Below, piece after piece: positions 9,487-48,868 of a DNA stretch of 64,000 nt. This DNA is from Sphagnum compactum. Lineage: Eukaryota. Where the stretch lies: contig OZ234493.1 of the NCBI GenBank assembly GCA_965153455.1, positions 34,772,213 to 34,836,212 of the forward strand. Reading direction: 5' to 3'. The translations under genes were made by a program, and so were the position numbers. Each line of letters starts with the position of its first letter. The first letter of the stretch is position 1. The notes beneath the pieces are model-generated. The model was given only the letters and a program-made list of their open reading frames with translations, searched no databases and was not told the DNA's origin.

Positions 9487-12458
9487 ATGGCGACAACAAC
9501 ATGTGCGACATGTGCGACAACAACGACCGTGGCTGGAGGAGGAGGAGGAGGAGCTCCTCAATTGCTTCTGAAAGAAACGCCAAAGGCAGGAGGAAGAGGG
9601 AAGAAGAAGCAATTCCAAGTGGTGATGAGAACTGCTGCAACAACGCTGGAGAACACACGCATCTCTTTGTTGCGAGCACTGTCAACGCAAGCTGCTTCCC
9701 AGTCTCGACGCTGTAAGCATTCCAATCTCTCTGTCTCTGTCTCTGTCTCCATCATCATCTGCAAACACATCCTGTAGCCATCAAAACAACTGCCACTGAC
9801 AACTCCACAGAATCGAACTCTGGAACTCTCTCCACTCTTATTATTACACTGGAGGGTTTTTTTCCGCACATAGCAGGATGCAACACATTTTGTGTTTCTT
9901 TCTTTTCAGTAGAGTGTTTTCTGTTCCACAATAAAGAGGATGATGCAACACTTCTGTGTATTGTCAGTAAAAAGTATTCCACAGCCAGATGGAACAATTC
10001 ATGGTTTTTGCTGGAGAGGTTTTTTTCCCACATCTAGGTCTGTTTTCACAAGAGAGTTTTTTTCCACGTGAGACAAAGGATGCAACACTCTGTGGGTTTT
10101 TTCAGTAGAGGTTTTTCACATCACGATGCAACACTCGGTAGAGTCTTTGGCACATCAGGAAACTATGGATTTTTCTTCATTAGGGGTTTTTCACATCAGG
10201 ATGCAACACTCAGTAGAGTTTTTTGGCACATCAGGAAATGTGGCACTCAGAAATCTTATGAAGAGTGTTGCAAGGTTGAATGCAAGATGAGAGACTCATT
10301 TCTTTCGTTCTAAGTTGTCATGTGTACCTGTGATGGGCACAGCAATTGAAAACTTGGCAAAGGAAGTTGTCAAGTATACGAATCCAAGGAAAAGTGAGGC
10401 AAGGAATTTGGAAGAGGCACTTATGACCGGTGAGTGCAGCAGCAATCACTGCCATGCACTACCATTTTGGGGATAATAATTTTGTATCAAATTTCCTCTG
10501 AATTCAAAAACATTGAGGAAATTCTTTACAAATGTTGAGGATTGTTTACTTGAACAGTGAGGAGTCTTCTACTTTTTTGGTCAATTGATGCTTCAATATA
10601 CCTAATATCTCAATGCTTGAACATTGAGATATTCTGGTGGAGGGTTTTGCAGTTCCAGATCTAGAAACAATACCCTACACAGTGATCCGGCAAGAGCAAG
10701 ATTTTGAAATCCGAGAAGTTGAGGTGAGGGAAAAAGCTTTCCATTTTCTTGCAAGTTCAATCTATGGTTGATGATTCCAATTTCACAGTTTCAATCTCAA
10801 TCTCCATTGTAATATTGTGATTTCAATTTCAAACTTTCTATGATTGCTGAGTTTTGGAAGAAACAGTCATATGTGGTTGCAGAGACAGTGATGCCAGGGC
10901 GAAGCGGATTTGACTTTGCAGGCTCAGGTCAGGCGTTCAACACTCTTGCAGCTTACCTCTTCGGCAAGGTAATTGTCTTTTGTATCTGTTTATGTCATGT
11001 GCAGTTTAAGGATCTTTAGAATGCATATTAGCTGTTGATTTTGGTATGGGATTTGTCTGTTGTGCTCTTAAATTGGTTGCATCTGGTTTTGGTGAAGAGG
11101 GATCTACATCCTGGCAACCAAAAATGGAAGAACCAAATGCTGCTTTGTCTTTTTTTGCCATTCACATTTAACAACCTCTTTAGGTGACATTCCTTGAACT
11201 CTGTTGTTGCTCCAATTCCGCACTTTCAGCACTCTCCTTGACATGGTGTAATTGTGGGTGGTGTGTTGTAGAACACAAAGGAAACAGAAATGGCTATGAC
11301 GACTCCTGTGGTTACACAAAGGGTGCAATCTGAAGGTGTCAAAATGGAGATGACCACGCCTGTAATTCAACAAGTGAGGACAGAATCCAAACATTTGCAG
11401 ATAGACTCAATGCATTTTTGAAGATTTTCTCATCCAAGACCATATGACAAGGAACATGTGCAAAATGAAAGCAACTGCTTACATGGTTATGTTGCTGGCA
11501 CATACTATAGTACTCAGAATTGCAAGTCTCATAGCAAGTTTAGAATAGCACGTTACAGAGCAAGTTTAGAATTTCAAGTTGCAGAGGAAGTTTAGTTGTG
11601 TAGAGGATTAACCAGGATGCCTAATTTCTTTGTGCCAGGAACTAAACCATGTCTGAGTGGAAAAGATGGTCTTGATTTGCCTCTTGCAATGTATCCTGTA
11701 TATTGGTGGGTAGGCATCAGGGCAGGGACAGTGGCGAATGTCATTTGTCTTACCAGCCAAGTACAGTGAAGACACACCAATACCCAAAGACTCAACTGTC
11801 AGTATCAAGAGGATACCTGCCAAGACAGTTGCAGTCACAGTCTTTTCAGGTTACAGTTCTGAAATTGTTCCGCACATTCACATAGCAGATGGTAGAGGAG
11901 AAACTCTTGTGGATTCACTGAAAGTAACTTGGAGCTCTATGTTACAGTGGTATGACATTCAGCTTCATGTTTCTACTGACACACTTGCATCAAGCTCTGC
12001 AGCAAACGTTTAACATTGTTTTGAGCTTCATTCCATTATTGTGATTTGAAATGTGAGAAGCTCTTTGAGTAGATGGATAGAGCAGCGATAAGAGGTGCAT
12101 TGGTTTGTGGCAGGCTTTGTGACAGATGATGATGTTAGAAAGAAAGAGCAGGGGCTGCGCAGGGCTATTTTGAGGGATGGACAAGTGCGGGTGAAGGCAA
12201 ATGCACAACCAGAGGTTGCTCAGGTGGGAGGAATGCACACCTTCGTTCCTTACTTTTGTGCAAATCGTTTTGTGTTCATATGCTGATGCAATGTGCTGCA
12301 GGATTACGATCTGTAGGTAAATACAGAAAGATTATTGCTTACTACAAGAGCAGCTAACATGAGCATGTTTTTTGGTGATGTATGTGCAGTACAACCCTCC
12401 ATTCACACCACCATTCATGCGCCGGAATGAACTTGCTCTCGAAGTAGAAGAGTTGTAA
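9487..12458 (+). CDS. SOUL heme-binding family protein, plastid-type (similar to Arabidopsis At3g10130), ~300 aa, 8 exons
   Basis: Exons 9487-9712, 10343-10429, 10653-10723, 10867-10968, 11272-11373, 11714-11849, 12114-12223 and 12390-12458 are all GT-AG and in phase (903 nt). Motifs include NLEEALMTVPDLET, AFNTLAAYLFGKN, MEMTTPV, WRMSFVLPAKY and AQYNPPFTPPFMRRNE. The N-terminus is T/A/G-rich and transit-peptide-like. Confidence 0.93.
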
Positions 12459-13170
12459 GTCGGTACATGTAAAGTATATGACATAGCAGCAAACTGTTTT
12501 CTGTGTTTATATGTAAAGCTGGGGTTTGTATGAAGACATGCTTCTCTTTTCTACCAGTTTCCTGGATTGGATCTTGATGAAGATGGAACTGTACAGAAAG
12601 CACAAAAGATCAACATGAGATTACCCATTATAGTGATGATTATAGTGATGTACCTTCGCTCTCTTGTTCCAGTTGACCTCCATTTTGTTGTCAGAATCAC
12701 TAAGTGGCCTCTTAAGTCTGACAAGCACTCTCACATCTCGCATTCACAAACAGAAAAATGTGTAAAAACCCTGGATGTAAGTGGTCAATCTCTTGAGCAT
12801 TACCGCATCAGAGTATATGGCATCATGTATAATGCTCAATATTTGCATGTGACACAAATTCCAATCAGGCAGGAAAGAAAAACCATGGCTCAAAAAACCC
12901 GACACAAAAGTCAGTCAGCACATCAAGGCAAGGCTCCAGAGAATTCCACATCAAGCTTACCCCTGACAGAAGAAAACGCTTTGTTGCTATTGTTTGCAAC
13001 TTCCAACAGATTTTGGAGAGAAAAAGACAAGATCAAGTGCAAAATCTGTGTGCTATAAAAAACCACATTTTTTCTTTAGACTCAGATCAAAGACTCTCTG
13101 CTGCAGCATCATCTCTCAAACACGTTTCAATAAACCTCCAAACCCTTTTGGAGATCCAGAGATCTCTCTT

Positions 13171-13222
13171 TGTGTGTGTGTGTGTGTGTGTGTCTGTGAG
13201 AGAGGGAGAGAGAGAGAGCGAG
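13171..13222. repeat. (GT)n(GA)n compound microsatellite
   Basis: Visible directly in the sequence. Confidence 0.9.
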
Positions 13223-13672
13223 AAAGGAATCCAACTGAGTACCTGTGCTGTTGCAGCTATTGGGTACCTACCTACAAAGGGGCTTTCCAGTGGGTACCCA
13301 AACTTCTTTCATCCAGTAGGTTGCAGGGAGCCATTTGTAACTGCTGGAGCCTGGCATCCAGTAGTGGGGGGGGATTGTGTTGTGTGATGGGTGCTGGAGA
13401 GAGGAGGACGACACTCAGCATGTCATGAGCAGCACAACAGCTATGGCAGCAAGGAGGTAAAAGCCTTACCCACTTTCTTTTTTTTGCTTCATTTCCATTT
13501 GCATCACATTTTATGCTCCCCTGCTCCCCTTTTGTGTTTGCTTGGATCTGCAATGACTACAACTACTACTACTACTACTACTATTACTACAGCAGTCATT
13601 CAATCTGTGTATCCCTCCCAATAGTAGGTTGCTTGAAATGAATTCTTATCCATCACCCGTTTCTCTCTTCTT

Positions 13673-16284
13673 ATGAAGATGGGTCACCTGGAAAAAGAAG
13701 TCCTTGCTTTCATGAAGGCTTTTGTGGTGGTGGAAGTTTGCAGTTTCAGGTAGAGAAAATGTTTTGCCCTACTTTTTGCTTTCTCCTTGAGGAAGAAGAA
13801 GGAAGTTGCTGAACTCCTTCATCATCATTTCTTCTGCTCCTCCTGGTGAAGGATTTCAGCAGAGTTCAAATTTCTGCATACTGTATGTCTACCATCATCA
13901 TGATGAAGGGAGAAGACTTGGGTCATTGCAGATTTCTTGCTTTCTTGAAGGAGACCTTCTAATAGAGTGAACTGGGAAATTGGGTTCTTGTTCATGCAAG
14001 AATCATGTGCAAAACATGGCTTACATAAGGGGGATTGTGCAGGCGGGGATTCTCTGCACCTGCAGAAACTGCGAAGTTGGAGAAGGAGACCAGGGAGAAG
14101 ATGAAAAGACTGGCAGAAGTTCGTGCTGCGATGGCAACAGAGCGCCAAGTCTGCGAGGAGCTCAGGTACACTCTTGATTCCTCAACAAACAGTTTGTTTG
14201 TTTTGCTGCATTATGTTCAAAGCATTATTATTGTGTCTGTGGTTTTCAATGCAAACTCACCATTGAGTTTGAATCTATTGCCTACAAAACACACCTTCAA
14301 AGTCCAAAAAAAGAATATGTAAAATACAACATAAAGAATGCCATTTGTAAAGCACACATTAGAGGATTTTTCACAGTGATGATGCTTGTGTTCCTGTGCA
14401 GAAGAGAAGCAAGCACAAAAGGCTGGTGGAGTGCAACAATGCCAGTACACCTTTGAGTCCCAATTATCCTTTCACAGCATACATTTTACGATCTGCATTT
14501 GCATCCAAAACACATGAGCTGACTGACCCATTATGCCAATAGAAACTGTGTGTCAATGCAAATGGAGTGCATGATGTGTAATTGTGCAGAAAGGCCATCA
14601 GGAGAACATGCATGAAAAAGGGCTGAAGTCATCAACAAGGACTTTGCCAGTAGTTCCAGCCACCTCACTCAAGCTCAAACAGAGTTCCAAATCTTGTTGT
14701 CCCGTTACCAATTTTGTTGGTATCCTGCATTGTCCAGCCTTCCATAACTTTCTCATGTTGTGGGTCTGGATTTGATTCCCTTGTTTTCACCTATGGACAT
14801 CAAGTTGGAGACAGAATTGATCAACACTTCCAATCCAACTTTTGGGGGCATGAGGGAAAACCAAATAGGAAACTTGGGAGAGCCTGTTGGATTTGAGAGC
14901 CAACTAATCCACAATGTTTCAGCAAGCAGCGCATGCATATGTCCTGTTTTTTCTTCTTCAAGCATAATTCCTGAATAGCTTATATTGTGAAGGGTATTGT
15001 GTTGTTTACCATACTCAGATTGCTCTCAAGTTGAAAACAAGCTTGTGAGATCTCTGCCTGCTGCACAAGGCCCTGACATGAAGGCATTCAGAGAGTTTGA
15101 TGAAGCAGCAAGCAATGCTTCATTTGCAGGAGCACTGGCAGAATGGCGCAATTCAGGCTGCACAACAAAGACAGGCATGCAATTCATCTGTGTATTTTTC
15201 AAAAGCAGTAAGCTAACACTTAGATGTTAAGCTCACAACCAATTTCTACATCGGTTGCTTCAGTTATTGAGCATCATTTCTGCTCCTGAGTCTGTCGGTG
15301 GTCAAAGGGTCATACATACTTCTGTTCTTCTATTTTGCTATATCAGCCATGATGGGATGTTTGCAATTTTGACATAAACTGTTTACAATGGCAGAGGTGC
15401 AAACAAGATTTGAAGTTGTGCCATTGCACATAGAAACACAGCACAAACATCAATCACCCATTTCTGATACAGGTACCTTGACCCAAGCCTACACTTGAAT
15501 TTTTTTTTGGGTATGCAAAGCGTACTCAGCAGTAATGCTGCCAACCTAAGCACTTTTTACTGATAAAATTTTCTATGCCTCCTTAGAAGTCAACATCATG
15601 ACTGAGCCTTCTTCCTGTTGCTTCTGTAAAAGAGACAAACTCAGGACTCAGATATTCTATAAAACATTTCCCATATTTGTTGTTTACTTATCTGGACTCG
15701 CCATTGGGAGCTGATAACATCAATGGGTAGTAAATGCAGCTCGTTGCTGCCATTTCTGATGAAGGTGATTGTCACTAACCATATTGTTGTTCTGAAACAG
15801 AGAAGCTGACCCAAAGGATGACTCCCCCACCAACAGATCACTGCACAATGGGTATTCAGACAGAAAAACCGACAGTGGCCAACAGTGAAATTGAGAGTCC
15901 TGTTGTTCAACACACCTACTTCCAACATGTATGCCACTGACCTCAACCATTCTGGTTCCTCAAAGGTCTATGCTTGTTAGTGTGTATATCAGCAACAAAA
16001 TTTCTGTTGCTCTTGTGTTTCCGCACTTTTTTCTGAATAAATAATTGCCTTTTGTTTTGTTGCTAATTTTTAGGCCAAATTTTTGGATAGCACTTTAGTG
16101 ATTATAATCCATGGGTTCATATATATCCCCACCCAAAGTCCATCTTTGATTGTATCCACTGTGGTGTGGTGTATGTATGTCAAGGACAATATGGTGTCAT
16201 GATTCTTCCCATGTTCTTCACATGCCAAATCTCTTGTGCATTTTGTAGCTTTGCATGCAAGACTCAAGGCAGTTTCTGCCTTAG
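13673..16284 (+). CDS. ZBBX-like (zinc finger B-box domain-containing protein-related) putative flagellar/ciliary protein without a recognisable B-box
   Basis: Proposed exons 13673-13749 (start tentative), 14043-14165, 14402-14444, 14590-14719, 15019-15174 (GC donor, or GT donor at 15208), 15395-15472, 15801-15928 and 16249-16284 keep one open frame. The peptide blocks LEKETREKMKRLAEVR, REASTKGWWSA, FDEAASNASFAGALAEWR, EVQTRFEVVPLHIE and TYFQHL are collinear with recalled human ZBBX motifs (LEFENQEMEKKLQEFR, RESSEYYWKSG, FDEEASAQSFQEVLSQWR, EVQTNLKIWREPLNIE, SYMEKL). Confidence 0.7.
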
Positions 16285-17084
16285 TATGGAGGCCAAGAAC
16301 TTGGGTTATATATCAAATCATCGGGAAAATGCAACTGGTATCTGAGTTTTTCATGAAAAGAATTGTATCAGTTGTAAAGGCTCGTTTTTTCTCTGCAACC
16401 TGACTTGAGAGACATGTTAATAATGCTTCCGCTCATCTAGATTCTAGTCTGAGTGCATCACCAGCTCTGAGATTTGGAGGGCCAACAACTAGAGGAATTG
16501 AGAACTGAGCAAAAATGCCTCATTTGTCGATTGCTGGTACAACAGGATTAAGCCTTGACAAGATTTTTCTCTTTGCACATGACATTATGAACTTTGATGT
16601 TCCACTTCCAAACTATGGAGGGTTCATGTCTAGTGTTTACATGGTTTGTGAGTTTTGGGTTGCCTAAGCTTGTCTAGACTCCTAAAACGATAGATCCTTT
16701 CATGAATTTCCCCCAAATTCTTAAGTAGTTTGTATATGAACAACATACAAAATGAAGTTCTTTGAAGGATTCAAATGCATTTGAAGGAAACATAACAAAT
16801 GGAGTCAAGCTTTAAATTAACATGTAAATGCATCAAGTAGAGCTAGAGAATTGAGCACATAATTTGGGTTTGAGCATGTTGGAAGATGGGCAATTCATTC
16901 TCATTCAATGGATGAAGAAAATTGTTCATTGTCCATTTTTTTTTTGTCCATAGTCGAATGCAGTTCATCCACGTTGTCCACTTTCATTCATACCACATGT
17001 TTGAGAGTTCTTTGCTTTAAGAAGGTTCTTTGGATGATTTTTTGGTTCATTACCCCAAAAAACAATTTGAGGAGGGAGGGGGTG

Positions 17085-21153: not shown

Positions 21154-24100
21154 TTATTGTGGGTTATGTGGTCGGCCGTTGGCTGTAGCTACACGTGATC
21201 CCCACTCAAGGAGCTCCTTGCTGGTGTCATCTTTGTTGAGGATAACCTCAATGAAGCAGAGACTGTCTTTTTCTTTCTCTGCTGCCGCTATAGCTGTTAT
21301 CAAATCTGCTTCTGTCTTCACCTGCAGAAACAGCCAACCAAATTTCCCAGTTTCAAACACCCAGAAGATGCAAAAGGAACTGGAGAAGTCTCAAGATTCC
21401 AAATTTCAAAGAACCGGTGTGAAGCTGCAAAAAGAACTGATTCAGACCAAAAATTGTTGACCCAAAAAAAAGGAGCCCAGTGTGCAAGTTCTGTGTGAAG
21501 CTTCTTCTTTTTTTCTGTTGCTGTCTCTGCAGTTGTGCAATCCTTTGATGATGATATCAACTGGCATACATACATACCTTGTATGTGAATAGTTTCCCTT
21601 CCCCATTGTGAAAAGCCTCAATCAGTCCGGTGTAATTCCAGTTCTTGATGATGTTGTATGGCCCATCATGAATCTCAACTTCAATTGTATAACCCCCATT
21701 GTTGAGCAGAAAAATGATCGTATGATGCCCATATCTAATCATCGTAGAAACATCTTGTGCTGTTACCTGACATACCCATATGAAGCACGTTCAAGGATTT
21801 GAGTAACAACTCCCAAGAGAATTTCATTTGGCTCATGCATTTCAAACTCATCTGCTGCTGTTGCTGATCAGAGAACAGAATTGATTACAACTCAAATGCT
21901 AGCTGGGATCTTGCTTGAACCCATCATAAGAAGGAAATAAAACTGAGATCATAATGTCAAGTGCCAAAACACTCCACAGCAGATTTGGGTGGCATTCGAT
22001 TACCAAGCATTACCTGAAAGCTTCCATCCCCAATACAAGAAATAACACGCTTGTCCTTGCCAGCAGCTTGAGCGTAACCCAGAGTCGCACCAACAGCCCA
22101 CCCAATTGATCCATACTGCATTTGAAATTCAAACCCACATCCTTCAGGTAATCGTAGTTTTTGACAGTTGAACCATGAGTCTCCCGTCTCTGCTAAAACC
22201 ACATTCTCGGGTGTCAACATTGCCTGCAAAAAAAAAAATTGACACTCAATTTTGTAAGCCTGAATAATACACTTCACTTTGCTCCACAATAATTCTTTTC
22301 CCAAAGAAAGGGATTTGCAATTAGGGCTGCAGAAAATCTAAGGTCTTGAGTCTTGACCACATCTTTCCTTTTCCAACAGTTTTTTTCTGTACAAGTGATG
22401 ATGGTAGAGACCTGAATGTGCTTGAAGAGAGTCAGGGTTTTGATGGGCTCCCCTTCTTTCTCCTTGTGCAGGGTGCCCAGTGGAACATACATGCGCTCAT
22501 AGTTTTCAAATGATGTTGTGTTTCTTTCAACCCTCTCTGCTAACGCCTTGAAAAAGTCCCTCATCAGAATGCACCCAAATGACATACCCTCGCCAATTGT
22601 CACTCGATCTGGTTGCACAGTGATGGATTTTGATTTATGCAGCAAGAGTGAATACCCCACTGAGCTGAAACACCCCCCCAAAAAAATTCACATCTGACAT
22701 TAGCTTTCTTGATATATTTGTACTCCAACATTTACACCTGAAGGCAAATGGTGTTTGAACTACACTAGTAGGAATATACATAACTATACCCACAAAAGGA
22801 GGACAAAGAGCATATGGAACCCTAAGAGGACAAAGAGCCTCAAGCAAGGTAGGTAATCTAACATGGGTATACCTATAATCGTTGAAAACAGGTCCGGCAA
22901 AAAGGTAGCAATCAGCAGACTCAACGATTTCTGATGTGCAAGAAGAGCTCACACATCCCCAGTATGTTCCAATGAAATGAGGTAGTGCTTCAGAAATCCG
23001 ACCCTTTGCATCTGGCATCATTGCAACAGCATACCCACATGCATCGGCAAGCTTCTCAAATGCCGGACTTGCTTTTGCCACATGCAGTTTAGACCCAGCT
23101 ACGAGAACTGGTTTCACAGCTGCATTCATAACTTTGGCTGCTGCTTCCACCGCCGCATCCAAGCTGCTTTGGTTAGATTTCAAGTTACCGATCCCATAGT
23201 TCCTGGCACATATAATCATTTATGATTATTAGACTTAAACCCACACAGCACAGTGGGGGCTTGGATATACCATAGGAATTACTGTGGCTCTTTATTAGGC
23301 CTTTGCTTGTACAGTTTGATACCTATGCAAGTCGACAAAAGGTATGTATGATATTTATATCTTCAAAGGTTTAGAATTGAATCCGAGCTGCCAGAAGTGA
23401 AGTGACAAAGATAAAACCACACAGACCTTTTGAACTCAGGGCCCTGGGTGACGGAAAATGGGATAGGGTCTTTGGAAAAAGAAGGGTGTGCAACATTGGC
23501 AAGATTGCAACAAACACTAATGTAAACTGGCTTGCTTTGGAAGATCGCTGCTGAGATAGCTCTGTCAATCAGCTCCTGTGCATCATCCAAATTCTGGATT
23601 ACCACCTGCAAGAACAACAACAATGATGATGAGCCCTCCACAGTTTGTTATACAAGTCATCAGGAGGACCTCTCCCATCACCACCCCAAAAAACAAAAAG
23701 TCTCCTCAGTCAAGATCATGAATGGCATCAAGAATTTCCATCTGAGATTTGCAGAGAAATAATCTCCACAACAAACACTTCCAAGAATACAGTCATAAGC
23801 AACCTTTTGCGAGACAATTGCTCAGACAGTGTCAGACCCATCATCACCCTTCTTCATCATCATGTCTCAAAGAAAAGCAGTAATTGATAGACAAGCTGCT
23901 GCCATGAAGATTGAAGATTATGGTAGCATGGAGTTAGAGCATCTCCACTGGTGCTCAGTATGTGGCTCTGGACTAAAAATCTTGGATGAGGAGCAGGAGT
24001 GGATCCACTGGAAGACTGCTGTGACACTGGAAAAATGCACGGTGTTCAGAGCCCTGGAACAGTCTAATCAATACAGTCAATTTGTATTTATTGACTACTC

Positions 24101-24824
24101 CTTGTTTGTGATTCTCTAGATAGTCTGATTGGTCCAGGTGGGTTGCTATAAGTAGTCTCCCACCGATTTGCAGTCTCAGTTCTAGTCTTATGGAAAAAAG
24201 TAAGTAACTAAAACTTGGATGCGAGAAATATTTTTGCAGGGTCATATACTGAGCACCACTGGAGATACTCTTAGTTGAGCTTCTTGATCTGCTGCAAAAT
24301 CCAGCGAATCAAGTTCTACAATCGAAGAGGGAGGGAATTGAGAAAGTTAGATGGGATGGAATGGGTCATACCTGAGCACATGTGACCTCCTTGAAGCAAC
24401 GATATTCTTGGCTGAAATCTGGCAATCCCAAGGTGTGATGCAAGATGTGATTGGTGCCATAGTCATTGGAATTCGGACCACCCACCAAGCAGATGAGAGG
24501 CAGATTCTCGCTGTATGCACCAGCAATGGCATTGATGACACTCAAACCTCCAACTGTGAATGTGACCACACATGCTCCCACTCCCCTGCACCTGGCATAG
24601 CCATCAGCTGCATAACCTGCATTGAGCTCATTGCAGCAACCCCGTAGCTGAATCTCTGGGTCTGCCAGTAGCTCATCCAGGAGCAGCAAGTTGAAATCCC
24701 CCGGGACTGTGAACACATCATTGACCCCTATCTCTGCCAACCGTCGGGCTATGTATCTTCCCAGTGTCCATGTCTTGGCTGGGTGCAGGGGCTGCTGCTG
24801 CACTTCTTTGGTTGTTGATCCCAT
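21154..24824 (-). CDS. PDC: Pyruvate decarboxylase (TPP-dependent), ~593 aa, 7 exons
   Basis: Exons 24824-24372, 23605-23427, 23202-22873, 22664-22412, 22223-22014, 21766-21578 and 21321-21154 total 1782 nt, in phase, GT-AG. Motifs include [38 protein letters not shown], the TPP motif GDGSFQ...[13 protein letters not shown] and [14 protein letters not shown]. Confidence 0.97.
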
Positions 24825-26324
24825 TTTTTGCCTGAGGAGCACTACTACCCCAACACTTTCCTTTTCTTCAAGTACTTTGCAGAGGTCCACAGATTCCTGT
24901 CTTCTTAGCAGTTGCTGCTGCTGCTGCTTTTGCACAAAACCCAAAAACAGAAACAACCCAATTTTCAATGACAACGTTGCAGATTGCAAGAATCTCTTCT
25001 CCCTCTCTTTCTCTCTCTCTCTCAGTGTGTTATTTTCCAGCTCTAGCTTCTTCCCGACAGCCATCAACTTTGTGGATAGTGCGTGAATTTCACGAGAGAT
25101 TCCCTCCAGCTGCAAGGAAGCGCAAGATCAGCTCATCGCCACTGAATGACTTCAGACAACAAAGGAATTCCAAACCCGAAACTCTCATGCTCTGTATGTG
25201 TGTGTGTGTGTTTCTGTGTTTCTTTCACTCTCTCCAAGTGCAGAAAACACAGAATAAGAAGATGTCAAGTGCAAAGCTAGATGTAGAGAAAAAGAAACAA
25301 AGGGCTTCAAAACCAAACCCGAGATTTGGGTAGTTACTTCTGCAACAGGAGCAGAAGAGAACGAACGTCTTGATATCGATCTCTAACAAGAGAAAAACGA
25401 AAAACAAAACAGCTTTGTCAGCAGTACATACCGGAAGAACCCAAACCCTTTTTTCCTTCATACACACAAAAACCACAAAACAGACACACCCACACACACA
25501 CACACACACACATAGTAGTGTCCACAGAAGGATGCAGACAAGAGTTCCAAGAAACCCCACCTTGTTTACTTCAGCTCAGTTGCTGCAGCATACTTCTGAG
25601 CTTGTTGTTTCTGCTCGGTTGATGTTCTTTCAGTGGAGGTGGAGAGATCAACTGCCTTGTTGTTCTTGTTCTTGTTCTTGTTCTTCTTCAATGGACTGTA
25701 CAACGAGAGAAGAAGCTCACAGAAAGAAAACCAATCCAGCAACTGAAGAAATCTTTTTTGACAACAACAACAAGAACAACAATGCAATGCAGGTAGGAAA
25801 GCAGAAAGGGTTTGTGAAGCTGCATTTATGTTTGGACGGAGGAAAACAAGGGGAAAAGTGTTGGGCATCGATCGATCGATCGATCGCAGATTTTTGTTCT
25901 GTTTTTTTTTTTTGGGGGGGGGGGGGTTTGTGTGAGTCTTTTCCTGAAATCCCCACACGCATGACATGCTGCCAGACGGCAGTATCCTAGTGCAACAAAA
26001 AGCGCGAGCCAGAGCGCCAGCGCGCAAGAGAGAGAGCGAGCGAGCGAGCGTGCAAGCGCGCAGTGTTGTGGAAAGCTCTCTCTCTCTCTCTCTCTCTCAT
26101 GGATGAATGACTCTCGTCAACTGAATGAACAATAGATGGATGAATGTTGTTGTTTCTAGGTGCTTTTTTCTTTTTCCCTATTTAAATCTCTTTTTTTATT
26201 AACTCCCAATTTTATTTTTTATTTTTATTATTTTTTGTTTAAAATTTTCAATCTTTAGAATGGACTTCAAATTTATATTACAGAAATCAAAATTTTCTGC
26301 TGCCCTACTGAAAAAAGCTTGGGG

Positions 26325-47300: not shown

Positions 47301-48868
47301 GAAGGGTAAAAGAGGAGATGATGACACCATTTATTTGAGACTTCGCATTGCTGATCATGATGGTGAGTTTTAGTTGGAGTCTGTGGTGGTGAATGGTCGT
47401 TTTCAAGCACCATTTTCCCATGTAAATGTGCTTTTGTTGATAGGAACACAAGTCCCACCTTTGCAGCAGTTTTTTATGAGTGTCAGAGAATATGTATTGA
47501 TAGCACTGTTGTGCCAGAGAAACTGTAACAATGTGCGATTCTTGTTTCACAGGTCACAGCCGCAACATCCACTTCCCTTTTGACATAGAGATGGACACGG
47601 CAATGAGTGTTGCAAGTGAAATGGTGGCAGAGCTTGACCTGTCTGACCAGGATGTTACCACCATTGCTGAGATGATTGATGTGGAAATCCTTGCATTGGT
47701 TCCTGAATGGAAACCAGGAGTTGCTGTTGATGATACCGGTGCCACTGATGGTGAAACTGGTGGACCAAATGAGGACAGTTATCCACAAGAACCAGATGAG
47801 TATGATCCAATCGCCACAATATCTTCTGAGGACTCTATGACTGAACAACTTGCATCCAGTTGGAAACCACGTTCTTTTTCCCCCAAGATCAGCTCCGTAG
47901 CTGGAACCTCTCCTCCAAGGGTGGTTGAGGGGACCATGCATGGACGCTTTGAGGAAGTCACATACCGTACTCGATCTGATCTTCAGCAACGTGGACCTGA
48001 AGATCCTGTGGTCTTCTCCAGTGATTCTTCTGAAGGACACATGAGAGGTGAAGAAGATTGGGAGCATGATAGATCAAAATCTGAAGCTTCTGTGGCAGAT
48101 AGTGCCTCACCTACCCGTGGATCTTTCTCATCTGGCCTAAAGCACACTGACCTTGCTGAGGAGGATTGCCACAGTGAGGCAGGATCTTTTGATGAGCTTG
48201 GTGAAGTGAGAAGTACCAGTAGTGCCCAGTTCACAGGGAGGCTTCGAGAGGAAGAGGGTGTAGAAGATAACCAAGGTTTCTATAGAAGCAATGATTGTAT
48301 CGAAAATGAAGGGTTGCTGTCAGATTGGAGCAACCATAGTGAAGATGAAGAAGCCATTACTAATCGTGAACTGGAGAGACTGGCATTACAACAAAAGGAA
48401 GAGCTTCGTGACCTCCAACACCGGCATGAGCAAGCCTTGCTTGCAATCAAGAATCGGATGTGGCAAAAACCGTCCAAGTCAATCTCATCACGTTCAGGAC
48501 ACACCCATTCTTCCAATGTAGATTTCCATCGGAGCAATATAAGGAACCAGACCTTTCAATCAACACAGCCTCGCTCAGCATCATGTGTTGATCTTCGCAG
48601 CAAGCAGTTCCTGGAAACTCAGAATGGCAAGCTGCCTTCAGAGGAGTCAGAGGTCTTAAGCAGGCTTGCTTCAAGAAAAGGTGCAGGTATGAGTGCTGGT
48701 TATGTCAAGTTCACGGATGAACCAAGAGGCTTTGGGTTAGACCACAATTTGCAAGGGCATTTTTCTCAAGAATCATCATCAGACAGTAGGTATAATAGAC
48801 GACATTCATGGAAACCAGATACAGCAATAAGAGAGCATGGGAAATTCAAAGGGCCCTACTTCTATTAG
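44347..48868 (+). CDS. WNK: WNK (With No lysine) Ser/Thr protein kinase, ~867 aa, 7 coding exons
   Basis: Exons 44347-44475, 44612-44649, 44816-45043, 45632-45855, 46538-46695, 46852-47362 and 47553-48868 total 2604 nt, in phase. Motifs include [23 protein letters not shown] (catalytic Lys in subdomain I), [26 protein letters not shown] and GTPEFMAPE, plus a regulatory RNIHFPFD...EMVAELD domain, HGRFEEV and a C-terminal coiled coil. Confidence 0.96.

Follow-up and report, generated by a model that had tools for sequence, protein, structure and literature searches.

A weakly expressed Sphagnum gene for a predicted disordered protein, a candidate B-box-less counterpart of animal ZBBX

An eight-exon gene in a Sphagnum moss

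We analyzed a window of 64,000 nucleotides from Sphagnum compactum. Positions 13425–16284 (+ strand) of the window hold a nuclear gene of this moss that is real, has eight exons, and is weakly expressed. A preliminary description of this DNA had proposed eight short exons, beginning at 13673. All eight stretches are present on the + strand, with AG acceptors and with GT donors throughout except for one GC donor (15175), and when joined they give a single open frame of 771 nucleotides (256 amino acids) that ends at 16284. Exons 2–8 (14043–16284, + strand) correspond to P0001, a 236-amino-acid "unnamed protein product" that is annotated in Sphagnum jensenii. With this match, and with in-frame RNA junctions at four of the seven introns (see below), the description of a small multi-exon gene with one open frame holds. 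The gene had also been called "hidden." There is no stop-to-stop open reading frame of at least 110 amino acids on the + strand across 13673–16284, so the gene is not visible as a long frame. Nevertheless, "hidden" is an overstatement, because the gene is already annotated (as an uncharacterized protein) in the sister species S. jensenii.

The first exon of the preliminary description (13673–13749, + strand) is probably wrong and probably lies outside the gene. It is missing from P0001 and had zero RNA depth in all four of the runs that we compared (bin 13635–13761). It leaves the frame open, but its product is hydrophobic, unlike the N-termini of two relatives (P0005 and P0008, described below). 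The probable first coding exon, which is used by P0001, is at 13425–13456 (+ strand; from ATG to AGGAG, followed by the donor gtaaaa). Together with exons 2–8, it gives a frame of 726 nucleotides (241 amino acids) that matches P0001 from residue 1, with eight substitutions and one 5-residue gap, and the N-terminus that it encodes, which is short and basic, can be aligned to the one in P0005. RNA covers 13348–13548 in runs X1 and X24, in unspliced form, and no junction from 13456 was seen. Three first exons have been proposed so far: that of the preliminary description, that of P0001, and a fusion with the upstream SOUL gene (P0003).

The remaining exons are all on the + strand. Exon 2 (14043–14165) encodes most of a long N-terminal helix (residues about 17–51) and is supported by an RNA junction and by tblastn matches to P0001 (97.6%), P0005 (57%, E = 3e-9), and the Selaginella protein P0012 (48%). 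Exon 3 (14402–14444, a 100% match to P0001) encodes the end of this helix and a K-G-W-W-S motif (14418–14432). Exon 4 (14590–14719) also matches P0001 and encodes a linker that is predicted to be disordered, is rich in S, T, P, and K, and has no Cys/His zinc-finger pattern. Exon 5 (15019–15174, a 98% match to P0001) is followed by the GC donor and encodes the helix motif FDEAAS..AL.EWR (15096–15149); it is matched in tblastn by P0005 and by both repeats of a metagenome protein, P0010 (E = 6e-4 and 3e-3). Exon 6 (EVQT..., 15395–15472) is supported by RNA contigs and by relatives. Within it, five residues encoded by an in-frame stretch of 15 nucleotides (15407–15421) are missing from P0001 and P0002 and present in P0004. 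Contigs from X1–X3 run from 15174 through 12 letters equal to 15395–15406 to 15422. Exon 7 (15801–15928), which is supported by an RNA junction and by aligned relatives, encodes the motifs T-M-G-I-Q-T-E (15845–15865) and T-Y-F-Q-H. The coding part of exon 8 (16249–16284, L-C-M-Q-D-S to the stop) is supported by a contig from X2, the 3' UTR extends to at least 16577, and this C-terminal form is common to P0001 and P0005.

We rejected a later donor for exon 7 (15965): the frame meets a TGA at 15938–15940, so exon 7 must stop at 15928 (CAACAT, then the donor gtatgc). Alternatively, exon 7 is read through to this TGA, which gives a ...QHVCH end, as in P0002; contigs in three runs continue to 16051–16124. 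The Selaginella protein P0012 likewise differs from a read-through form (P0008) after TYFEH, so Selaginella seems to splice at the same place, after TYF[QE]H. We also rejected a 34-base piece (15591–15624) as an exon, as its flanks in the reads occur nowhere in the window.

Transcript evidence

Twelve runs recorded as RNA contain transcripts of the gene; most are metatranscriptomes of mosses or plants. We compared 13000–16800 to four runs, one of them a polyA run and the others metatranscriptomes of this kind. In the polyA run, only 11 reads were placed, out of about 11.9 million records. Contigs or reads from the four runs contain splice junctions for four of the seven introns, and every one is in frame. 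The junction for intron 6 (15472/15801) was seen in all four runs, although in X24 by a single read, and that for intron 5, which is GC-AG, in three. The junctions for intron 2 (14165/14402) and intron 7 were each seen in one run. For both of these, the evidence is a contig from X2; for intron 7, the contig (16249–16569) is preceded by 16 loose letters that equal the end of exon 7.

The spliced forms of introns 3 (14445–14589) and 4 (14720–15018) were never seen in the four runs, and both introns are read through by contigs from three runs and by 2 to 3 raw reads from X24. If intron 3 is retained, then the frame ends after ...MPVHL, as in the Sphagnum balticum model P0003; with introns 3 and 4 unspliced, the protein would be truncated after about 66 residues. 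The frame of the preliminary description agrees with the RNA at four introns and not in full, since introns 3 and 4 appear only unspliced and its exon 1 is uncovered. Compared to the RNA of relatives, 6 of 692 covered exonic bases differ (4 of these are synonymous), versus 15 of 855 non-exonic bases.

A small, fast-evolving family

As judged by sequence comparison, the gene is a member of a small, fast-evolving family, with proteins from Sphagnum and Selaginella, a 257-amino-acid protein (P0005), and one metagenome protein (P0010). An exhaustive phmmer search with P0001 over 1,835,955,588 proteins gave seven hits. Three of these, all distant, align over nearly their full length: Selaginella LOC9652809, the 257-amino-acid protein, and the metagenome protein. 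The other four are short. P0005 aligned at E = 7e-18 (37% identity, residues 10–233), the Selaginella protein P0008 at E = 4.6e-7, and P0010 at E = 8.1e-5, in two stretches. When we used our gene model as the query for blastp, the E values were 3e-32 (P0005), 1e-11 (P0012), and 6e-9 (P0010). Exons 2, 5, and 7 are matched, in order, by P0005 (37% identical) and by P0012. The FDEE..WR motif (15096–15149 in the window) is weaker in P0005 and unrecognizable in Selaginella; P0010 has it twice, as two FDEE..SF..AL..WR repeats.

Other searches added little. A word-indexed search, with either exon 5 or P0001, found only Sphagnum proteins. A profile search with the alignment, in which the 8000 word-richest candidates were scored, was swamped by low complexity and missed even P0001 and P0005, so it was uninformative. 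In a search of metagenome contigs with the family alignment, 593 stretches matched the pattern and none were confirmed, and a degenerate DNA pattern for the FDEE..WR motif had no matches.

The named relatives are from Sphagnum and Selaginella, which are plants with swimming sperm, and none of the seven phmmer hits is an angiosperm protein. Nor do the seven include a protein from a named fern, liverwort, hornwort, or other named moss. A distribution limited to ciliated plants rests on very few points. We found no paper that names either identifier of the Selaginella gene (LOC9652809 or SELMODRAFT_439574).

Predicted architecture and an LC8-type motif

The product, of about 241 amino acids, is predicted to be a small, mostly disordered protein with three helices. 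With an alignment of four sequences, AlphaFold2 places helices at residues 17–57, 138–154, and 222–232, and the remainder has pLDDT below 50. The N-terminal helix is the most confident (block means of 93–97 across residues 21–50), while the 10-residue blocks over residues 131–150, in the second helix, average 66 and 83. The order of the elements is the long helix, K-G-x-W, the disordered linker, the short amphipathic FDEAAS..AL.EWR helix, [TI]-Q-T-[DE], and a C-terminal T-Y-F-Q-H-L helix. In the K-G-x-W-[SW] motif, K58 and W61 are invariant across all four aligned members. The long N-terminal helix, this motif, and the FDEAAS..AL.EWR helix had all been noted in the preliminary description, and the model and the alignment bear them out. 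The linker that separates the W motif from the FDEAAS helix (residues 64–130) has pLDDT below 50 and no CxxC/H spacing.

At E values of up to 10, Pfam had no match to five exon translations or to P0001, P0005, P0008, or P0010. When the PDB was searched with the family profile, the only hits were a designed coiled-coil peptide and V-ATPase subunit E (E = 1.8 and 8). A homodimer prediction for residues 10–70 scored 0.01 and gave no model, which speaks neither for nor against pairing.

Near the C-terminus, [TI]QT[DE] is aligned in all three land-plant members (P0001, P0005, and P0012), in a stretch with pLDDT below 50, and TYF[QE]H is aligned in the same three proteins. The motif takes the forms T-M-G-I-Q-T-E (in the window), T-M-D-T-Q-T-D (P0005), and C-M-G-I-Q-T-D (Selaginella). 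In part of one study, the motif bound by LC8 is described as a TQT core within eight residues, with the canonical TQT in 49 of 91 known motifs (10.1101/2023.09.15.557927). As in LC8 clients, the Sphagnum protein has a TQT-type motif of eight residues in a region that is predicted to be disordered. Three predicted helices in a disordered chain, together with the conserved [TI]QT[DE], suggest a putative LC8-type scaffold role. A passage of the same study states that a predicted LC8 motif in human ZBBX was dropped as unconserved even in mammals (10.1101/2023.09.15.557927).

Relationship to ZBBX and alternative explanations

The preliminary description interpreted the protein as a B-box-deleted homologue of ZBBX, an animal protein. 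We think that the family is probably a B-box-less counterpart of animal ZBBX, which is itself a candidate motile-cilia protein. The link is based on a language-model search for look-alikes (ESM Atlas) and on the motifs that the preliminary description gave for ZBBX. We presume, as it did, that ZBBX has an N-terminal helix or coiled coil, a W motif, FDEE..SF..L..WR, and a ..VQT.. block. If so, the motif in P0010 agrees with that of ZBBX at three positions where the Sphagnum protein differs. We found no paper that links ZBBX to plants. ZBBX appears in a published list of ciliary candidates that have experimental validation (PMC11317154).

The main alternative, which is possible and should be taken seriously, is that this is a disordered protein of the green lineage with no common descent with ZBBX, with a generic charged helix, easily arising motifs, and a non-ciliary function. 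The ESM Atlas results bear on both readings. In a feature search with the whole protein, the top-ranked cluster was "zbbx isoform X6" (score 0.92, 201 of 256 features) and the third was "zbbx isoform X3" (0.88). For scale, between 4 and 10 of every 100 shuffled proteins also attain 0.9. Two zbbx clusters within the top three of 7.7 million argue for the ZBBX link; on the other side, a cluster from Chlorophyta reaches the same score as zbbx, 0.92. When residues 1–56 were omitted (leaving residues 57–236), there was no zbbx cluster and hypothetical proteins from Chlorophyta scored 0.88 and 0.87. Because the link is gone for residues 57–236, it may reflect only a generic charged helix. Furthermore, the seven phmmer hits include no named ZBBX and no animal protein, though the library should contain representatives of ZBBX. 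Homology is plausible, but no alignment match to a named ZBBX was obtained.

The B-box for which ZBBX is named (Pfam zf-B_box) is absent from the exons and from all four family members at E values of up to 10, so the protein does lack this zinc finger. That the B-box was deleted is another matter. P0010, the one non-plant relative, also lacks it, so original absence and deletion of the B-box are equally likely. The lack of a B-box fits a protein unrelated to ZBBX, as do the reliance on presumed ZBBX motifs and the source of the transcripts, which are mostly from metatranscriptomes of mosses or plants. Conversely, P0010 has the motif form that the preliminary description gave for ZBBX, and all of the named relatives belong to plants that have swimming sperm, with no angiosperm hit even though the Selaginella protein is detectable.

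A decaying or non-coding transcription unit, with largely unspliced or truncated transcripts and with an annotated protein that is an artefact of gene prediction, is quite unlikely. The unspliced introns 3 and 4 (in contigs from three of four runs and in reads from X24) and the read-through of exon 7 in three runs would fit this, as would the three differing first exons and four library ORFs that all end in retained introns (P0002, P0003, P0006, and P0007). However, retained introns are common in total-RNA metatranscriptomes. Also, exons 2–8 keep a frame that is conserved as far as Selaginella and P0005, splicing after TYF[QE]H seems to occur at a shared position, the 15-nucleotide indel within Sphagnum is in frame, and most of the exonic differences are synonymous.

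Least probable of all is that the exons are part of a longer read-through gene that begins with the upstream SOUL haem-binding gene (9487–12455, + strand), as in P0003 (301 amino acids, PF04832), which joins SOUL exons directly to exons 2–3 but ends in the retained intron 3, whereas P0005 and the Selaginella proteins have short N-termini of their own without a SOUL domain, and, within 13000–16800, no RNA was found that joins sequence before 13348 to exon 2.

Proposed function and comparison with known systems

Taken as a whole, the explanation that we favor, with modest confidence, is a real gene of a small family that is the counterpart of ZBBX and encodes a flagellar scaffold. The protein would serve the flagellar apparatus of swimming sperm as a scaffold or adaptor: its helices would bind partners, and the TQT-like motif would recruit an LC8-type dynein light chain. 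A broader reading, which we consider doubtful, is that the proteins from Sphagnum and Selaginella and P0010 preserve the original core of ZBBX, and that this core was an LC8-recruiting flagellar scaffold of ancient eukaryotic origin. On this view, animals would have gained the B-box later, instead of plants having lost it, and among land plants the gene would survive only in those that produce swimming sperm. The core in that reading comprises the long helix, K-G-x-W, the FDEE..WR helix, the TQT-type motif, and the YFQH tail.

Mosses are already well known to retain cilia-linked genes for their sperm, so the gain here is one family and no new principle. ZBBX itself is a candidate cilia gene about which little is understood. 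If the proposed relationship is true, then a B-box-less relative in a moss and a lycophyte shows which parts of ZBBX (the helices and short motifs) are old and probably essential, and it offers a small, knockout-friendly model for the role of ZBBX in flagella. If the link to ZBBX fails, then this is one further uncharacterized disordered plant protein, of limited interest.

The closest known protein, P0001 from S. jensenii, is the orthologue; the copy in the window carries five additional residues in exon 6. The uncharacterized protein of Selaginella moellendorffii (LOC9652809 / SELMODRAFT_439574) shares the helix, K-G-x-W, C-M-G-I-Q-T-D, and T-Y-F-E-H, but it is 25–29% identical and lacks a clear FDEE..WR motif. 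Like the clients of LC8 (DYNLL), the Sphagnum protein has a [TI]-Q-T-[DE] core, predicted disorder, and an adjoining long helix that could pair; in contrast to the canonical T-Q-T, two of the three family members have I-Q-T. The likeness to ZBBX consists of the clusters ranked first and third in the ESM Atlas search, what is presumably a shared succession of N-terminal helix, W motif, FDEE..SF..L..WR, and ..VQT.. block, and the origin of the named relatives in organisms with motile cilia or flagella (Sphagnum and Selaginella). The Sphagnum protein differs from ZBBX in having no B-box and in its size, about 240 amino acids versus 295 and 714 for the representatives of the zbbx clusters.

Gene structure

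The locus is a conserved protein-coding gene and not an artefact. It lies in ordinary plant nuclear DNA (G+C about 42% over 13000-17000). The eight plus-strand stretches proposed in the preliminary description are bounded by AG acceptors and GT donors throughout, except for one GC donor at 15175, and together they form a single open frame of 771 nt (256 amino acids) that ends at 16284. Exon 7 ends at 15928 (donor CAACAT/gtatgc). A later donor at 15965 was ruled out because the frame then meets a TGA at 15938-15940. On the plus strand, the gene region has no stop-to-stop open reading frame of at least 110 amino acids, so the gene is, as first described, undetectable as a long open reading frame.

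With exon 5 as the only query, we found P0001, an "unnamed protein product [Sphagnum jensenii]" of 236 amino acids (98% identity), which places the window in a Sphagnum moss closely related to S. jensenii; the gene is already annotated in that species, with no function given. Exons 2-8 are colinear with P0001. The first ten residues of P0001 are encoded at 13425-13456 (ATG...AGGAG/gtaaaa), versus 13673-13749 for the originally proposed exon 1, which had zero RNA depth in all four of the runs that we compared. Exons 2-8 of the original model stand, but its first exon is probably wrong. With 13425-13456 as the first exon, the model has 726 nt (241 amino acids); aligned with P0001, it shows 8 substitutions and a single gap of five residues. 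Microsatellites, (GT)n/(GA)n and (ACT)n, lie on either side of this probable first exon (13156-13231 and 13549-13597); both intervals were skipped as repeats in the RNA comparison.

Elsewhere in the window, open reading frame pieces at 22635-25127 (minus strand) carry the N-terminal and central domains of thiamine-pyrophosphate enzymes (PF02776, PF00205); this is a gene of the pyruvate decarboxylase or acetolactate synthase type. A 454-residue open stretch at 47504-48868 (plus strand) has an OSR1_C domain (PF12202, E = 1.7e-5), which occurs in the C-terminal parts of proteins of the WNK/OSR1-type kinase pathway.

RNA evidence

A search for sequencing runs returned 24, and part of the stretch was present in 23. 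Among these, twelve are RNA runs according to their records (mostly metatranscriptomes of mosses or plants), and each of the twelve held about 0.2 of the sampled words, which is roughly the exonic share. With 13000-16800 we compared three of the twelve, as contigs (X1-X3), and a polyA run, as raw reads (X24). The contigs are 95-99% alike to the window, so they come from close relatives. X24 gave only 11 reads out of about 11.9 million records, which indicates low expression in that sample.

Spliced junctions were seen in all four runs for intron 6 (15473-15800; a single read in X24), in three for the GC-AG intron 5 (15175-15394), and in one each for intron 2 (14166-14401; an X2 contig) and intron 7 (15929-16248; just 16 loose letters equal to the end of exon 7). 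No run had a spliced junction for either version of intron 1, where 13348-13548 is covered, unspliced, in X1 and X24, or for introns 3 (14445-14589) and 4 (14720-15018), which are read through in X1, X2, and X3 contigs and in two to three X24 reads. Every observed junction keeps the frame, and much of the RNA is incompletely spliced. Reading through exon 7 to 16051-16124, as in three runs, gives a ...QHVCH end that is also found in the metatranscriptome frame P0002. If intron 3 is retained, the frame stops after ...MPVHL, the same end point as in the S. balticum model P0003.

P0003 merges exons 2-3 with the upstream neighbor, a multi-exon SOUL heme-binding gene (9487-12455, plus strand; PF04832 on P0003); the fusion is probably read-through or a prediction artefact. 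Within intron 6, a piece of 31-34 bases (15591-15624, plus strand) is matched in all four runs at a depth of about 14-50. The contigs and reads that match it are abundant, but their flanking sequence resembles the window on neither side and occurs nowhere in the 64 kb, so the match is probably due to chance or to a repeat, with the transcripts coming from a strongly expressed gene at another locus.

Excluding position 15607 (in this foreign piece) and everything from 16289 on (3' UTR), 6 of 692 covered exonic bases differ from the relatives' RNA (4 of them synonymous), as do 15 of 855 non-exonic bases. Sphagnum relatives are polymorphic for an indel of five in-frame codons in exon 6 (15407-15421, 15 nt): the window and the short match P0004 have them, whereas P0001, P0002, and the RNA contigs of the relatives do not.

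Relatives and protein architecture

An exhaustive phmmer search with P0001 (1,835,955,588 representatives, E up to 0.001) gave seven matches. Fragments that look like Sphagnum proteins account for three of them (P0004, P0006, and P0007), and a fourth (P0009) is a 45-residue fragment resembling P0005. The others are P0005 itself (257 amino acids, unnamed, E = 7e-18, 37% identity over residues 10-233), Selaginella moellendorffii LOC9652809 (P0008, 302 amino acids, E = 4.6e-7), and a JGI metagenome "hypothetical protein" (P0010, 256 amino acids, two matched stretches, E = 8.1e-5). With tblastn on the window, P0005 matches exons 2, 5, and 7, in order; a second Selaginella model (P0012) matches exons 2 and 7; and both repeats of P0010 match exon 5. 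The C-terminal form created by the exon 7-exon 8 splice (...YFQH-LC.QD...) recurs in P0005, and the two Selaginella models part immediately after TYFEH, as if Selaginella had this intron at the same position.

Selaginella is as distant from a moss as angiosperms are; none of the seven matches is an angiosperm protein, though Selaginella was detectable.

AlphaFold2, run on a four-sequence alignment (mean pLDDT 54.9), predicts three helices and disorder in the remainder. The long N-terminal helix (residues 17-57) has 10-residue block means of 93-97 over residues 21-50 and lower values at both ends; the helix at 138-154 holds the FDEAAS..AL.EWR motif (66 and 83 for the blocks spanning 131-150); and the helix at 222-232 (YFQHLC...) has means of about 46-57. 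K58 and W61, in a K-G-x-W-[SW] motif, are among the residues invariant in all four members. The disordered part has a short block common to the three land-plant members (T-M-G-I-Q-T-E, T-M-D-T-Q-T-D, and C-M-G-I-Q-T-D). In the four members, Pfam recognized no family at any cut-off, nor a B-box even with E values as high as 10 allowed, and the segment from the W motif to the FDEAAS helix is disordered and free of CxxC/H spacing. The protein is therefore B-box-less, as had been claimed.

Proposed kinship with ZBBX

When the ESM Atlas was searched by features with P0001 as the query, the top cluster was "uncharacterized protein zbbx isoform X6" (Chordata; 0.92, 201 of 256 features), followed by one from Chlorophyta (0.92, 203 features) and then by "zbbx isoform X3" (0.88). 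By the atlas's own figures, a score of 0.9 is reached by 4 to 10 of 100 shuffled proteins. Residues 57-236 alone gave Chlorophyta hypotheticals (0.88 and 0.87) and no zbbx, so the link leans on the charged N-terminal helix. None of the seven phmmer matches is ZBBX, metagenome scans for relatives found nothing, and no similar entry was found in the PDB. The P0010 motif (F-D-E-E-x-S-x-Q-S-F-x-E-x-L-x-x-W-R) agrees, at three positions where Sphagnum differs, with the form ascribed to human ZBBX in the preliminary description. We lean somewhat towards kinship with ZBBX. That the B-box was deleted in the moss is not borne out: P0010, the sole non-plant relative, also lacks one, so the B-box may instead be an animal addition.

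Likely function and comparison with known systems

Sphagnum and Selaginella, the named relatives of the moss protein, both have swimming sperm. Together with the absence of angiosperm matches, this distribution fits a flagellum-linked role, with very few data points. One paper counts ZBBX itself among experimentally validated ciliary candidates (PMC11317154), and a table in another includes it with ependymal-zone-enriched genes (PMC6524006). Clients of the LC8 dynein light chain carry a TQT-core motif (10.1101/2023.09.15.557927), which the [TI]QT[DE] block in the disordered stretch fits as a candidate; the same preprint discarded the predicted LC8 motif of human ZBBX as unconserved. The protein might then be a helical scaffold of the sperm flagellar apparatus, putatively recruiting LC8.

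A literature search found no paper tying ZBBX to plants or naming the Selaginella gene. The advance is modest: plausibly, a little-known cilia family has here a new variant that lacks the B-box, in a lineage expected to keep its cilia genes. Among the closest known proteins, the uncharacterized Sphagnum and Selaginella proteins are true relatives; ZBBX is a probable but unproven one, from which the moss protein differs in its missing B-box and in size; and the likeness to LC8 clients is a functional analogy only.
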